From a plasmid: a DNA stretch of 64,000 nucleotides. The stretch lies in assembly GCF_988243305.1 (NCBI RefSeq), contig NZ_OZ547137.1, one strand, 5' to 3'. Positions 36,901-42,900 of this stretch are shown here, one piece after another; position 1 is the first letter of the stretch, and every line of letters starts with the position of its first letter. The position numbers are program-made.

Positions 36901-39900
36901 CAACGAGAACTGATGGGAGCCGATTATCTGCTCCACGTCAGCACCCCGATCGGCACCCTGCGCTTTAGCCGCCGCAACCGCGGCAAGGTGCCGGAGAAAG
37001 ACGAGTCGCTACCGATCGGCTTCTCGCCTGCCGATGTGCATCTTTTTCATGCTGAGACCCAGCATAATTTACAGATGGAGACAGATCATGTTTAAACCCC
37101 TCACCGCCCTGACGGTTGGGCTCAGCCTTGCCCTGAGCGGCGCGGCGCTGGCGAAAGAGAAAATAGACTTTATGTTCCCGGCGCCGGTGGACGGCAAGCT
37201 GACCATGGAGATGACCCGCGTCATTAAGCAATTCAACGACTCGCAGCAGGATGTCGAAGTGCGCGGAATCTTCACCGGCAACTACGACACCACCAAGATC
37301 AAAGCCGAATCGGCGCAGAAGGCCGGCCAGCCACCGGCGCTGGTGATCATGTCCGCCAACTTCACCACCGATCTGGCGCTGAAGGATGAGATCCTGCCGA
37401 TGGATGAGCTGTTTAAATATGGCGATCAAAAGGCCGGCAATTTTCTGCAAACGGAATTCTGGCCCGCGATGCATAAGAACGCCCAGGTGATGGGCACCAC
37501 CTATGCGATCCCGTTCCATAACTCGACGCCGCTCCTCTACTACAACAAGACGATGTTCGATCGGGCCGGGATCCAACAGCCGCCGCAGACCTGGGCCGAG
37601 TTGCTGGCCGATGCCAAAAAGCTGACCGACGAGAGCACAGGCCAGTGGGGGATCATGCTGCCGTCGACCAACGACGACTTCGGCGGCTGGATCTTCTCGG
37701 CGCTGGTGCGCGCCAACGGCGGAAAATACTTTAACGAAGACTATCCGGGCGAGGTCTATTACAACTCGCCGACCACAATCGGCGCCCTGCGCTTCTGGCA
37801 GGATCTGATCTACAAAGACAAGGTGATGCCGTCCGGGGTGCTGAACTCGAAACAGATCAGCGCCGCGTTCTTCTCCGGCAAGCTCGGGATGGCGATGCTC
37901 AGCACCGGCGCGCTGGGCTTTATGCGTGAGAACAGCAAAGACTTTGAGCTTGGGGTAGCTATGCTGCCAGCCAAAGAGCAGCGCGCAGTGCCGATCGGCG
38001 GCGCCAGCCTCGTAAGTTTTAAAGGCATCAGCGAGGCGCAGAAGAAAGCAGCGTATCGGTTCCTGACCTATCTGGTGAGCCCCGAGGTGAACGGCGCATG
38101 GAGCCGCTTCACCGGCTACTTCTCGCCGCGCAAGGCGTCATACGATACGCCAGAGATGAAGGCCTATCTGCAGCAGGATCCGCGGGCGGCGATTGCGCTT
38201 GAGCAACTGAAGTACGCCCATCCATGGTACTCCACCTGGGAGACCGTCGCCGTGCGTAAGGCGATGGAGAACCAGCTGGCGGCGGTGGTCAACGATGCCA
38301 AAGTAAGGCCGGAAGCCGCGGTACAGGCGGCGCAGAAGGAAGCTGACGCGCTAATGAAACCCTATGTGGATAAGACCGCGTTGTCGGAAGTGAAGTGACG
38401 CGTTACCCGTCATCGTCACCCTCATCCTGGCCCTCTCCCTGAGGGCTGTCTCTTGATCAGATCTCCTGATCAAGAGACTTCATCACCAGGTAACCCTCAA
38501 CCATATCCTGAAGTCTGAACCAGCCATCCCACATAACTACCCAACCGGGGCGGCCTGTGCGTTTGCTGTCATACCATCGCCCCAGTTTCGCCAGTTTCAG
38601 ACAGGCCCATTTCAGTGTCGGCGTCTGTGACGGAAGCGGTTTTCCTTCCAGCTTAACCCACAGCAATTTCCACTCTGTCGGCGCCAGTATTTTCTCACAG
38701 CTGTCATTTTGTGTTTCTTCACTGATACCTCCCTGCCGCAGGCCCAGCACCCGTACCGCTATAAAGGGGTTTGGGGAGCAATGGAACAGTAACGCCGTTA
38801 AGAGGTTAATTAAAATAGCCAATTATCTATTAATCAATAAATTATACATCTTCATTGAACGCCCTCAGCTCACCCTTACTGACTGATTCCGGCACTATAA
38901 ATGAATAGCGCCCTTGCATATTAATATGCCCGCACTGTAATGGTGACAGTTTCTCAACGTCTGAATCCAGGACCGGGTACCCCTCACGCCTGAGCTGCTG
39001 AATTGCTGCATCCATGTAAATAGTGTTCCACAGAACAATAATATTGAGCGCCAGACCTGAACCGCCCCGGAAATCCTGGAGACTAAACTCCCTGAGAAAG
39101 AGGTAAACAGGATGACTAAAAATACTCGTTTTTCCCCCGAAGTCCGTCAACGGGCAGTTCGTATGGTTCTGGAAAGTCAGGGCGAATATGACTCACAATG
39201 GGCGGCAATTTGTTCCATTGCTCCAAAGACTGGCTGTACGCCGGAGACTCTGCGTGTCTGGGTTCGCCAGTATGAGCGGGATACCGGGGGCGGAGATGGA
39301 GGGCTCACCAGTGCTGAACGTCAGCGTCTGAAAGAGCTGGAACGTGAAAATCGTGAACTGCGCCGCAGCAACAATATCCTTCGCCAGGCTTCCGCTTATT
39401 TTGCGAAGGCGGAGTTCGACCGCCTCTGGAAAAAGTGATGGCACTGCTGGATAAGCTGCGTGAGCAGTACGGGGTCAGACCGGTATGCAGTGAACTGCAT
39501 ATTGCCCCGTCAACGTATTACCACTGTCAGCAACAGAGACATCATCCTGATAAACGCAGTGCACATGCACAGCGCGATGACTGGCTGAAGAGAGAGATAC
39601 AGCGCGTATACGATGAAAATCATCAGGTGTACGGTGTGCGTAAAGTCTGGCGTCAGTTGTTACGGGAAGGAATCAGGGTGGCCAGATGTACAGTGGCGCG
39701 CCTCATGGCGGTTATGGGACTTGCCGGTGTTCTCCGGGGTAAAAAGGTCCGCACTACCGTCAGCCGGAAAACCGTTGCCGCAGGTGACCGCGTAAACCGT
39801 CAGTGCGTGGCAGAACGTCCTGACCAGCTGTGGGTGGCTGATTTTACTTACGTCAGCACATGGCAGGTCTTCGTCTATAGTGGCGTTCATCATTGATGTA

Positions 39901-42900
39901 TTTGCCGGATATATCGTGGGATGGTGGGTATCATCGTCCATGGAAACGACATTCGTGCTGGATGCACTGGAGCAGGCGTTGTGGGCCCGTCGTCCGTCCG
40001 GCACCATCCATCACAGCGATAAAGGCTCTCAGTATGTGTCACTGGCCTATACGGAGCGACTAAAAGAAGCAAAACTGCTGGCATCAACAGGGAGTACAGG
40101 CGACTCGTATGACAACGCGATGGCGGAGAGCATCAATGGTCTTTACAAAGCGGAGGTAATACACCGTAAGAGCTGGAAAAAACGTGCAGAAGTGGAACTG
40201 GCCACACTCACGTGGGTGGACTGGTATAACAATCGACGATTGCTGGGAAGGCTGAGGCATACTCCTCCGGCAGAAGCAGAAAAAGCGTATTATGCTTCCA
40301 TCGGAAATGATGAGCTGGCAGCCTGAGTTCACAGATAAAACACTCTCCAGGAAAACCGGGGCGGTTCAGTGAGATCATCGTCCCCTCCCGGTCAGTTCAC
40401 GGATCAACACTGTGAGCAGCTCTGGTGAAGGATTTTCCAGCGTCATGTTACCGTGACGGAACTCAACCTTACAGGAGCTGGCACTGACTGTGGTCTGAGT
40501 AGATAAAGACGGAGTAAGAGCAGCCACCGGTTCTTTCGGTTCATCCGGCGTTATCTCCACAGGTAATAATTCAACGCCAGTGTCAGAAGAGGTTGTTACC
40601 GGAAGACGCCGCGATATACGCCCTTCATTCTGCCAGAGCCTGAGCCATTTGAACAGCAGGTTATCATTGATATCGTGTTCCCGGGCAATACGGGCAACAG
40701 AGGCTCCTGGTTGTAAAGCCAGTTTAACCATTTGAAGTTTAAACTTATTTGAAAATGATCTGCGGGGTTCTGCGGATAATGCTTTCTGTTCCATAACAGG
40801 TGTCTAACTATTGGGGCGCACTTCAGTTGAAAAGGTGGGCACCTAAGTTACCAATACTGGCTTAATGGCTACATACGGCGGTCAGTTTACGCTTACTTCA
40901 TGACCTGATGAAAAGACCTGTCCGGGGCTTTGACATCCACCAGGGCCTGAAGGACGAGGCTTTACGGTGCACCCGATAAAGAACAACAGACACCCCGGAA
41001 AGTGTCTGTTATGTTCTGCGCTTCTTGCTTTATTTCAGTATCACGACAGGAATATTTTCCGCGTGAGATATGAAGTAATTAACCATAAGCATCTGTTATT
41101 TATCAGAAAAATACTGCATTTATAATCAGCAGCGTGACTGTACCTGACGCCCATAATATGGTTGAGGTTATGCTCCAGACCCGGATCTGTTCCTGTACTT
41201 CGGTAACCCCCAGAGAACGGTTTACAACCCAGAAGTAGGCATCGTTAAAATAGGAGAACATGAAAGAACCAATCGTACAGCCAAGACCGGCAATGATTGG
41301 ATCAACACCCAGTGTACCGATCATCGGCGCGGTGATGCTGGCCGCGGTAATCATCGCCACGGCACCGGACCCCTGGATAAGGCGGATAAGCGTGGACAGG
41401 AGTAAAGGCAACAGTACACCGGGAACGCCAATTTTAACGATATAACCTGCAATCATATTGGCGGCACCGGAATCCCTCAGAACCATCCCCAGAGCACCAC
41501 CTCCTCCAATCAGCAGTAAAATGATACCAGCCGATCGGATAGCATTGTCCATACTGTGGGTCACTTCTTCTCGCGCATAATGACTTCCGAGGCCAATAAC
41601 CGCAATCAGAAGTCCACATCCCACAGCCACGACCGGGTGCCCGATGGTGATGAACATTCTTGATACCGTCCCCTGCCAGTGACCAGCCCATGTATCTGCA
41701 ATGCCGCTTTCCCGGAAGAATGTCGCCAGCAGGATCAAAATAATCGGCACAAACAAAGGCGCGAAGGAAATCAGTGTGCCAGGAAGTTGCTCATCTTCCT
41801 GTGGGTTTAGCACGGGAACAGCCTGCCATTCACGGGTAAAGCCTTCGCCATCTTCCGTTGGCACAATAAAAATGCGTTTTCCCAGCCATGTGGTATAGAT
41901 AAATCCGCACAGCGTGACCGGAATGGCAACCAGCATGCTCCAGAGCATGAATGTCCCTATCGGCATATCAAACTGAGAGGCTACACCGAAAGGCCCCACC
42001 GCCGGAGGGATCATACTGTGGCTGATAACCAAGCCGGCTGCCAGTGTTGCTCCCAGGCCGACAATTGACTTTCCACTGGTACGTGAAAGCGACTTAACAA
42101 GCGGTGTCAGAACAACAAATGCTGAGTCGCAGAATACGGCCATTGAAACAATAAGACCAATCAGGACAAGTGCGAGTTCTTCACGCTCTTTACCCAGCAC
42201 CCGGATAAAGGTCTGAGCCATTTTTCTGGACGCGCCGCTGAGCTGAAGCAAAGCCCCCATCATTACACCAAACCCGATAACGATGCCGATATTACCCAGT
42301 GTTCCGCCAAATCCTTTCGTAATAGACTGAATCATCAGGTCACTCTTCATCCCTCCTAATGAACCCGTAATGATGGCGGCGATAATCAGAGCGGGAAAGG
42401 TGGATATCCGGGTTTTCAGTATCATAAACAACAGGGCTGCAATGGCAACAAGCAGACCACCAATAACATGCGAACTTTCCAGTTCACTGCTACCGTGGCT
42501 TCCTATATAGAAAATAACCAGACCTATAATCAGTATTACAATGCCTTTTAACCTAGGGCTTAATGAATATCTGCCCGTTACTTTTATATTTTCAGACATA
42601 ATAATTTTATCCTTCTTAAATACAGTCAGTTCTGTATTTAATGATGCAGTCATAGGCACTCCCGCTTAATAAGCGGGAGTTATGTTACCGATTACTGTTT
42701 GCTGAAGCAGGGTGCATATAGCGCTGCCAGCCGGACAGCTTCAATCATACTGACAGGGTCTGCGATCCCTTTTCCTGCAATGTCATTGGCAGTACCGTGG
42801 TCGACGGACGTACGCAGGATGGGCATACCATTGGTGATAGATATCGTGCGATGAAAATCCACCATCTTGGTCGCGATATGTCCCTGATCATGGTAGGGGG

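Follow-up and report, generated by a model that had tools for sequence, protein, structure and literature searches.

The IS629-family elements on an Escherichia coli F-type (RepFIB) plasmid very probably differ in history, with two copies that are old and broken, a third that is recent and carries the group II intron E.c.I4, and conversion among the copies. We analysed a 64,000-nucleotide stretch of this plasmid (the window; contig NZ_OZ547137.1 of assembly GCF_988243305.1), on which such elements would have gathered at different times and would now stand at unequal stages of decay.

A first-pass annotation had held that the three copies are in different functional states: copy 1 frameshifted in orfB by a 1-bp insertion (tatagtggcg versus tatgtggcg), copy 2 truncated at 48230, and copy 3 interrupted by an intron but otherwise full length. 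Alignments and reading frames bore out all three. Its reading of a different age or origin was likewise upheld by subtype distances, target duplication, empty sites and shared lesions; it agrees with published IS629 subtype diversity and with the known homing of E.c.I4 into IS629. The inventory of three copies was correct as far as it went, a fourth, IS629-like remnant at 6320-6409 having been overlooked. The terms "dead" and "potentially active", where applied to copies 1 to 3, are readings of their sequence. Three IS629 copies and an intron amount to ordinary mobile-element decay of a kind previously described, with no novelty, and the results are mainly of value for annotation, with little significance beyond it. 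Coordinates are collected in Table 1.

Table 1. Mobile-element features of the window, in order of position.
Feature	Position	Strand	Remarks
Second ISEc38 copy	1-1379		Cut off by the start of the window
Fourth IS629-like remnant	6320-6409	+	Left end, heavily decayed; 93 aligned columns
IS629-family copy 1	39058-40368	+	1311 bp (one extra base)
Copy 1 orfA	39112-39438	+	Open, 108 aa
Copy 1 ALIL pseudoknot (RF01497)	39393-39509	+	117.6 bits, gathering score 50
Copy 1 orfB remnant frame	39435-39896	+	153 aa, stop at 39894-39896
G-to-T substitution	39868	+	Gly to Val
Inserted A	39879	+	Sole gap column
Separate IS3-family element	46971-48229	-	1259 bp; abuts the truncated end of copy 2
IS629-family copy 2	48230-49142	-	IS positions 1-913 only; left inverted repeat at 49142
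Copy 2 ALIL pseudoknot (RF01497)	48691-48807	-	Rfam match
CTC target-site duplication, first copy	52735-52737	.	Empty site in related plasmids
Copy 3, 3' exon part	52738-53252	-	IS positions 796-1310; remainder of orfB, right inverted repeat
Group II intron E.c.I4	53253-55522	-	2270 nt, sense orientation within orfB
Intron reverse transcriptase/maturase ORF	53343-54866	-	507-aa ORF; 502 aa as called by PGAP
Copy 3, 5' exon part	55523-56317	-	IS positions 1-795; left inverted repeat, orfA, ALIL, orfB start
Copy 3 ALIL pseudoknot (RF01497)	55866-55982	-	Rfam match
CTC target-site duplication, second copy	56318-56320	.	Perfect match to the first copy
ISEc38 (ISL3 family) split by copy 3	56318-57738	-	Larger part; remainder just below 52737

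Family membership and subtypes

The copies resemble IS629/IS1203/IS3411 (IS3 family, IS3 group), elements of 1310 bp with TGAACCGCCCCGG... terminal repeats, a 3-bp target duplication, an orfA (108 aa), an orfB (296 aa) that overlaps it in the -1 frame, and an ALIL pseudoknot. In all three, orfB lies in the -1 frame and starts at a (G/A)TGATG that overlaps the orfA stop codon, and the pseudoknot was matched at full length with 117-120 bits. At the slippery run, copy 3 and the Sakai copy have A6 (GGAAAAAATGA), in contrast to the A5G (GGAAAAAGTGA) of copies 1 and 2. Terminal inverted repeats of the TG...CA form are present at both ends of copy 3, together with a CTC duplication, and at both ends of copy 1, where a duplication is lacking; in copy 2 the left one alone is retained. 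The OrfAB fusion of copy 3 scored 365 bits against NF033516 (NCBIfam IS3 transposase; cut-off 160), and that of copy 1, with its extra A removed, 351 bits. As this model is a generic one for the IS3 family, it names no isoform; isoform names were taken from the product names given by PGAP (NCBI's annotation pipeline) to near-identical copies.

The reference was the IS629 annotated on pO157 Sakai (NC_002128 30694-32003). Elements sharing at least 90% nucleotide identity are counted as isoforms by ISfinder. All three copies lie at or above that level relative to Sakai IS629 (95.3% for copy 1, 94.7% for copy 2 and 96.1% for copy 3). With an identity of 94.3% to copy 1, copy 3 is a different IS629 subtype. 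The first-pass annotation had credited copy 3 with a handful of substitutions, and this was a marked underestimate: against copy 1 there are 74 substitutions and an indel, which alter 20 residues of OrfB and 6 of OrfA. Its example, MMPLLDK in the OrfB of copy 3, was correct, copies 1 and 2 having (V/M)MALLDK.

By these distances, copy 1, copy 3 and Sakai IS629 are three subtypes 4-6% apart. PGAP uses the name "IS1203 family" for a copy 99.9% identical to the Sakai type and "IS629 family" for a fragment 98.6% identical to copy 3; copies 1 and 2 form the third subtype, approximately 94-95% identical to both others and named merely "IS3 family". This resembles, in scale of divergence and in the coexistence of subtypes in one genome, the published IS629 subtypes I-III, which differ by 4-5% and have been attributed to independent acquisition (Rump et al. 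2011, PMC3271280).

Lesions, age and exchange in copies 1 and 2

The extra A is the single indel of copy 1 relative to copy 2, copy 3 and the pO157 Sakai IS629, giving TATAGTGGCG where the A-free copies have TATGTGGCG; the region 39435-40326, at 892 nt, is not a multiple of three. The orfB frame breaks at codon 149 and, past the A, runs through S G V H H to a stop. The stop falls ahead of the OrfB catalytic core, and the only Pfam match of the shortened product was HTH_21, the rve domain being absent. A copy identical to copy 1 in NZ_CP196121.1 carries the PGAP name "IS3 family transposase, frameshifted". Copy 1 retains both ends, orfA and the frameshift signal, and the single extra A deprives OrfB and the OrfAB fusion alike of their DDE catalytic core. 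With this core lost, copy 1 is predicted to be unable to make transposase, and it could move, at best, by the transposase of another copy. Since IS3-family transposases act preferentially in cis, as established from IS911, rescue in trans may be negligible. Copy 1 is preceded by acc and followed by gtg, which form no target-site duplication.

Copy 2, read from 49142 to 48230, aligns with positions 1-914 of copy 1 and ends there. It keeps orfA (108 aa) and the ALIL structure, but orfB is missing its 3' third and no right inverted repeat is left; the loss of its right third and right end leaves it immobile. The sequence past the break is the inverted repeat of the separate IS3-family element (TGTAGTGGCAC... 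and ...GACCACTACA), which PGAP names "IS3 family transposase, programmed frameshift" in the related plasmid L001. No target duplication was found at copy 2, nor at this neighbour, whose flanks are gga and gtc.

Copies 1 and 2 are judged to be old because they occur throughout the plasmid family, lack target duplications and share even their inactivating lesions with related plasmids; they are long-standing fixtures of that family and belong to a divergent IS629 subtype. The remnant is the oldest of the four, as indicated by its indels and its identity of only 88%.

It is unlikely that a composite transposon with copies 1 and 2 as its arms brought in the intervening 8-kb segment for sugar-acid utilisation (40369-48229), the present states of the two copies being later decay. 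The two copies are inverted with their left ends facing outward, share 810 identical bp and enclose a discrete cargo (GntP permease, pdxA, a four-carbon acid sugar kinase, a DeoR regulator and KpsF/GutQ), all of which speak for such an origin; however, the outer flanks, acc and act, are not the identical 3-bp sequences of a true duplication, which leaves the composite transposon unsupported, and the segment contains remains of an IS66 tnpA as well as another IS3-family element, which point to piecemeal assembly. Copies 1 and 2 matter chiefly as 0.9 kb of inverted homology, able to flip or convert the intervening metabolic segment.

The two copies are identical over their first 810 bp, and all four of their differences are confined to the final 103 bases of the 913 that they share, a clustering with a chance of about 1.6e-4 if differences were spread uniformly. 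In L007, the copy 1 locus bears a 50-bp patch typical of the copy found in the chromosomal ireA island, and the AR_0069 element combines Sakai-like with copy-2-like stretches in a mosaic. The extra A is common to copy 1 and the ireA-island copies and is absent from the near-identical copy 2; this distribution defies a simple tree of age, so that recombination has to be assumed. Besides independent mutation, these relationships show exchange among the IS copies, by recombination or gene conversion.

The history of these elements is reticulate, a point missed in the first-pass annotation, and age by itself is insufficient to describe it.

Distribution of the extra A

The frameshift in copy 1 is real and old. 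The exact 81-mer containing the extra A occurs in 341 complete E. coli records, and in 2 more with the T variant at 39868; the 81-mer search found the same subtype without the A in 13 records, a ratio of about 25 to 1. Copies with the A carry the label "frameshifted" from PGAP. The T is private to this plasmid lineage, its exact 81-mer being confined to the 2 records, and together with the extra A it provides a lineage marker for this F-type plasmid family.

We think it very unlikely that the subtype with the A persists and spreads as a non-autonomous element, whether it is mobilised in trans or passed on through gene conversion between plasmid and chromosomal copies; conversion might then occasionally repair the lesion, perhaps in the ireA-locus copy of FCI1, and a flipped copy in pJJ1886_5, offset by 3 bp, would be a trace of mobility. 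Highly improbable, too, is the proposal of a frameshifted element that is no fossil but a non-autonomous derivative of IS629, still mobilised by transposase from intact IS629 copies. Such a derivative would fit the intact inverted repeats of copy 1, the excess of the allele over its intact counterpart and its presence in two unrelated contexts (a junction with Tn3 tnpA on plasmids and the ireA island on chromosomes). It would also fit pJJ1886_5, where a copy with the A adjoins that Tn3 fragment but is turned round, and its junction is displaced by 3 bp, as long as an IS629 target duplication. Against this, the chromosomal loci inspected (six of six) are the same ireA-island locus and the plasmid examples inspected share one common locus, and on these grounds a proliferating non-autonomous IS was rejected as the main reading. 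That just two or three contexts explain the cases seen fits the vertical inheritance of fossils. Furthermore, a target duplication is missing at copy 1, conversion from one copy to another can be seen directly and could spread the A without transposition, and the cis preference of these transposases also speaks against mobilisation.

Two further proposals were set aside. Selection of the truncated OrfAB as a transposition inhibitor is opposed by a further -1 deletion, at IS position 569 in related copies, which sits inside the truncated frame. Insertion of copy 1 into the terminal repeat of a Tn3-family transposon, suggested by a flank loosely like GGGGTCTGACGCTCA, was rejected because PGAP places that flank within tnpA coding sequence, which lacks its N-terminus at the side facing the IS.

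Finally, that the extra A is a sequencing or assembly error in a really intact IS, which the first-pass annotation had named as the finding that would overturn it, is effectively refuted: single-base indels are the commonest assembly error, and the FCI1 chromosome assembly (L010) has an otherwise identical ireA-locus copy without either indel, but the A lies outside any homopolymer run (TAT-A-GTG), recurs in the 341 and 2 independent complete-genome records, from many laboratories and from plasmids and chromosomes, and is flagged independently by PGAP.

Copy 3 and its group II intron

Copy 3 extends from 56317 to 52738, its exons parted by the insert at 55522 to 53253. Joined in silico, the exons form a 1310-bp element with OrfA (108 aa) and OrfB (296 aa) open and both ends intact. 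The CTC duplication is perfect, and the site is empty (...tttcagCTCaggttc...) in the two closest related plasmids (L001 and L002). Intron-free copies 100% identical to copy 3 are found at many loci in other genomes; 1298 records hold an element of this type at an identity of at least 99%, and matches to copy 3, counted at any identity, reach up to 53 places per genome. Copy 3 is judged to be recent because of the perfect duplication, the empty site and the identical copies elsewhere. The last two are also indirect evidence of transposition activity, obtained for copy 3 alone. It would thus belong to a widespread, currently active IS629 type and would have entered ISEc38 by recent, ordinary transposition that left the 3-bp duplication. 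The junction of copy 3 with ISEc38 had no single-piece match among 20,395 E. coli records; with no other carrier found, the insertion rests on one sequence.

The boundaries of the insert, GTGTG and CTAC, satisfy GUGYG...AY, and Rfam Intron_gpII (RF00029, domains V and VI core) was matched at its 3' end (53253-53339, 64.9 bits). The encoded protein has the Pfam domains RVT_1 and GIIM and scored 340.8 bits against TIGR04416 (cut-off 300). The intron is 99.4% identical, gap-free over 2300 nt, to the published E.c.I4-2b (NC_009801 4848623-4850893), and copies 100% identical to it occur in many genomes. Like E.c.I4, it encodes a reverse transcriptase-maturase and occupies a set site within the transposase gene of an IS3-family element, which it reads in the sense direction. 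Its length differs by one nucleotide from the 2271 nt of the published coordinates, and its host is IS629 proper, whereas the exon flanking E.c.I4-2b in E24377A differs from IS629; there is no difference of substance between this intron and the published E.c.I4.

Removal of the intron in silico gives the exact open IS, as would be expected of frame-restoring splicing. The transposase of copy 3 would be obtainable from spliced mRNA only, whose sequence is open throughout; splicing and a retained capacity for transposition are inferred. A defect invisible in the sequence could exist despite the identity of copy 3 to multi-copy elements elsewhere. Of the three copies, it alone is a plausible remaining source of IS629-driven rearrangements, as judged from sequence. 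The elements are nested, E.c.I4 inside IS629 inside ISEc38, and either the IS or the intron may have been inserted first.

E.c.I4, as it is called in the Zimmerly database, has been reported to home into IS629, IS911, ISEc16 and ISEc31 (PMC3522654). As described for E.c.I4, vacant homing sites (copies 1 and 2) stand alongside an occupied one (copy 3), a further example of the unsaturated sites of Leclercq and Cordaux (2012; PMC3522654). In NZ_AP028871.1, a related plasmid, the homologue of copy 2 contains a 2261-bp insert, annotated ltrA, at the same IS position as the copy 3 intron; it aligns with the intron-bearing copy 3 of the window and is consistent with homing.

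IS629-like elements of the window and their subtypes

A BLAST search of the window with copy 1 as the query, together with a repeat finder, yielded four IS629-like pieces: three copies of this IS3-family element and a short remnant that the first-pass annotation had not listed. As judged from their sequences, these pieces would differ in functional state: copy 3 is potentially autonomous, solely via a spliced mRNA; copy 1, with intact ends and no catalytic domain, is predicted to be non-autonomous; copy 2, with a single end, is predicted to be immobile, and the remnant should be inert. 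The earlier observation of copies in unequal states was thus confirmed, and its interpretation supported. All of these findings fall within biology already described, namely IS629 subtype diversity, IS pseudogenes and the homing of the group II intron E.c.I4 into IS629.

IS629-like pieces and associated features (window coordinates)
Feature	Position	Strand	Remarks
Copy 1	39058-40368	+	BLAST and repeat finder
Copy 1 orfA	39112-39438		intact
Copy 1 ALIL frameshift pseudoknot	39393-39509		intact
Copy 1 orfB frame	39435-40326		892 nt, 297 codons plus one base
Copy 2	49142 to 48230	-	BLAST and repeat finder
IS3-family element adjoining copy 2	48229 to 46971		apparently intact
isrC model match (RF01387)	48039-48161	-	full-length, 142 bits
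Copy 3	56317-55523 and 53252-52738	-	BLAST and repeat finder
Copy 3 insert	55522 to 53253		2270 nt
IS629-like remnant	6320-6409		93 nt; 88% identity, with indels
ISEc38, first	1-1379		clipped by window start
ISEc38, second	56360-57738		interrupted by copy 3
90-bp repeat, first unit	38445-38534
90-bp repeat, second unit	63911-64000		reaches window end

From 22916 to 64000, the window aligned at 99.4-99.97% with F-type plasmids of E. coli, on their RepFIB side, among them NZ_CP196121.1 and NZ_AP028871.1, in which metabolic islands are interspersed with numerous IS fragments. Other repeats of the window include the two ISL3-family ISEc38 elements (99.9% identical, direct orientation) and a 90-bp direct repeat (98.9% identical) matching what is annotated in related plasmids as fragments of IS4-family transposases.

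Copy 3 had been credited with a handful of substitutions, a figure that did not hold: it carries 74 substitutions and an indel relative to copy 1 (94.3% identity), which alter 20 amino acids of OrfB and 6 of OrfA. Identity to the reference IS629 of pO157 Sakai was 95.3% for copy 1 and 96.1% for copy 3, and the three represent three subtypes. PGAP names a copy 99.9% identical to the Sakai type "IS1203 family" and a fragment 98.6% identical to copy 3 "IS629 family", and gives copies 1 and 2 only a generic IS3 name. Rump et al. (PMC3271280) described three IS629 subtypes with 4-5% divergence, for which they concluded independent acquisition; the subtypes of the window can be read in the same way. 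The proposal of copies of different age or origin is therefore supported, the subtypes being 94.3-96.1% identical and copy 3 a recent insertion.

Base differences were also seen in the slippery run and the terminal repeats. In the slippery run that precedes the stop codon of orfA (39430-39438 in copy 1; 55937-55945 (-) in copy 3), copies 1 and 2 read A5G (GGAAAAAGTGA), and copy 3 and Sakai IS629 read A6 (GGAAAAAATGA); this base also alters the start codon of orfB, ATG becoming GTG. The left terminal repeat has A at its position 14 (39071 in copy 1) in copies 1 and 2 and G there in copy 3 and Sakai; at the corresponding site of the right repeat, its mirror position (40355, IS position 1298), copy 1 and Sakai have A, versus C in copy 3.

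The extra A of copy 1

Copy 1 is 1311 bp long. Its sole gap column in a five-way alignment (copies 1, 2 and 3, Sakai IS629 at NC_002128 30694-32003 and one chromosomal relative) was an extra A at 39879, TATAGTGG versus TATGTGG. As had been noted at first pass, this 1-bp insertion frameshifts orfB: the frame continues with S G V H H and stops at 39894-39896, leaving a 153-aa product with HTH_21 as its sole Pfam match. When the A was deleted in silico, the OrfAB fusion was open and scored 351 bits against the NCBIfam IS3 transposase model (cut-off 160), so that no obvious lesion besides the extra A remains; the terminal repeats at both ends are intact. No target duplication was found at the ends of copy 1 (flanks acc and gtg).

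The extra A is not a sequencing error, since 341 complete E. coli records contained an exact match to the 81-mer that spans it, in the version with G at 39868. The 81-mer as it stands in the window, with the T at 39868 private to its plasmid lineage, occurred in 2 such records. The same subtype lacking the extra A was found in only 13 records, 10 of these being copy 2 counterparts in the window's plasmid family. Copy 1 homologues were labelled "frameshifted" by PGAP in all records inspected. The allele occurs in two contexts, the window's plasmid locus beside a Tn3-family tnpA fragment and a chromosomal island beside ireA, the latter in 6/6 chromosomal cases inspected.

In pJJ1886_5 (NC_022651.1, 1831-3060), an IS with the extra A adjoins the same Tn3-tnpA fragment as at window 39028-39060, in reversed orientation and with a junction offset of exactly 3 bp (...gccagacc before the left end in the window versus ...gccag before the right end); its opposite side ends at IS position 112, where IS26 cuts it off. 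A simple recombination of inverted copies does not account for this flipped, shifted junction.

Truncation of copy 2 and the intron of copy 3

The match of copy 2 covers IS positions 1-913 and stops where the truncation had been placed, as it does in the two closest related plasmids, NZ_CP196121.1 and NZ_AP028871.1. The next base starts the inverted repeat (TGTAGTGGCAC...) of another IS3-family element. Simple insertion of this neighbour does not account for the truncation: its flanks (gga and gtc) showed no target duplication, and the missing IS629 part was absent beyond its far side, so that the 3' third was lost by deletion or recombination. The match to the Rfam model of isrC, an Hfq-binding sRNA, lies wholly within the neighbour's orfA region, and in the window this "sRNA" family corresponds to a piece of an insertion sequence.

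The insert of copy 3 (5' GTGTG, 3' CTAC) contains a group II domain V/VI match (RF00029) and an RT-maturase ORF matching RVT_1 and GIIM (Pfam) and TIGR04416, and aligned gap-free at 99.4% identity with E.c.I4-2b of E24377A (coordinates from the supplement of PMC3522654). E.c.I4 is reported to home into IS629, IS911, ISEc16 and ISEc31 (PMC3522654), and intron copies 100% identical to this one are present in many genomes. Removing it in silico left exactly 1310 bp with OrfA and OrfB open and a predicted exon junction of TTACTTACG joined to TCAGCAC, bearing out the description of copy 3 as intron-interrupted and otherwise full length. The homing site is still empty in copies 1 and 2, and in NZ_AP028871.1 a 2261-bp insert annotated ltrA occupies the same IS position within the copy 2 homologue; this insert aligns with copy 3 of the window, intron included.

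Because a CTC duplication lies on both sides of copy 3, and the uninterrupted site (...tttcagCTCaggttc...) is found inside the ISEc38 transposase gene in both close relatives, copy 3 entered ISEc38 recently, as a clean, nested insertion. Elements without the intron and 100% identical to it at many loci of other genomes, together with 1298 records containing a copy at >=99% identity, would mark it as the currently active type.

Exchange between IS copies

Copies 1 and 2 are identical over 810 bp and then differ at four sites within the last 103 bp, a clustering expected by chance at ~1.6e-4 under uniform spread. Copy 1 shares the extra A with the ireA-island copies, which are more distant, and copy 2 lacks it. 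In pRIVM_C019217_2 (NZ_CP087378.1, 12001-13310), the homologue of copy 1, which occupies the same plasmid locus, carries a 50-bp patch at IS positions 569-621, comprising a -1 deletion at 569 and two SNPs, that is identical to the chromosomal ireA-island copy and typical of it; it looks like a gene-conversion tract between plasmid and chromosomal IS fossils. In strain AR_0069, an intact element combines Sakai-like with copy-2-like segments as a mosaic. All four patterns are accounted for by recombination among the IS copies or by gene conversion.

One ireA-island copy, on the E. coli FCI1 chromosome (NZ_CM172811.1, 1720-3029), has neither the extra A nor the -1 deletion at position 569, equals the frameshifted ireA copy of another record (L004) at all other sites of an 8-sequence alignment, and is intact according to PGAP; this may reflect an ancestral state, a gene-conversion repair or an assembly-polishing effect. 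The right IS flank of the pRIVM_C019217_2 homologue is unlike that of the window.
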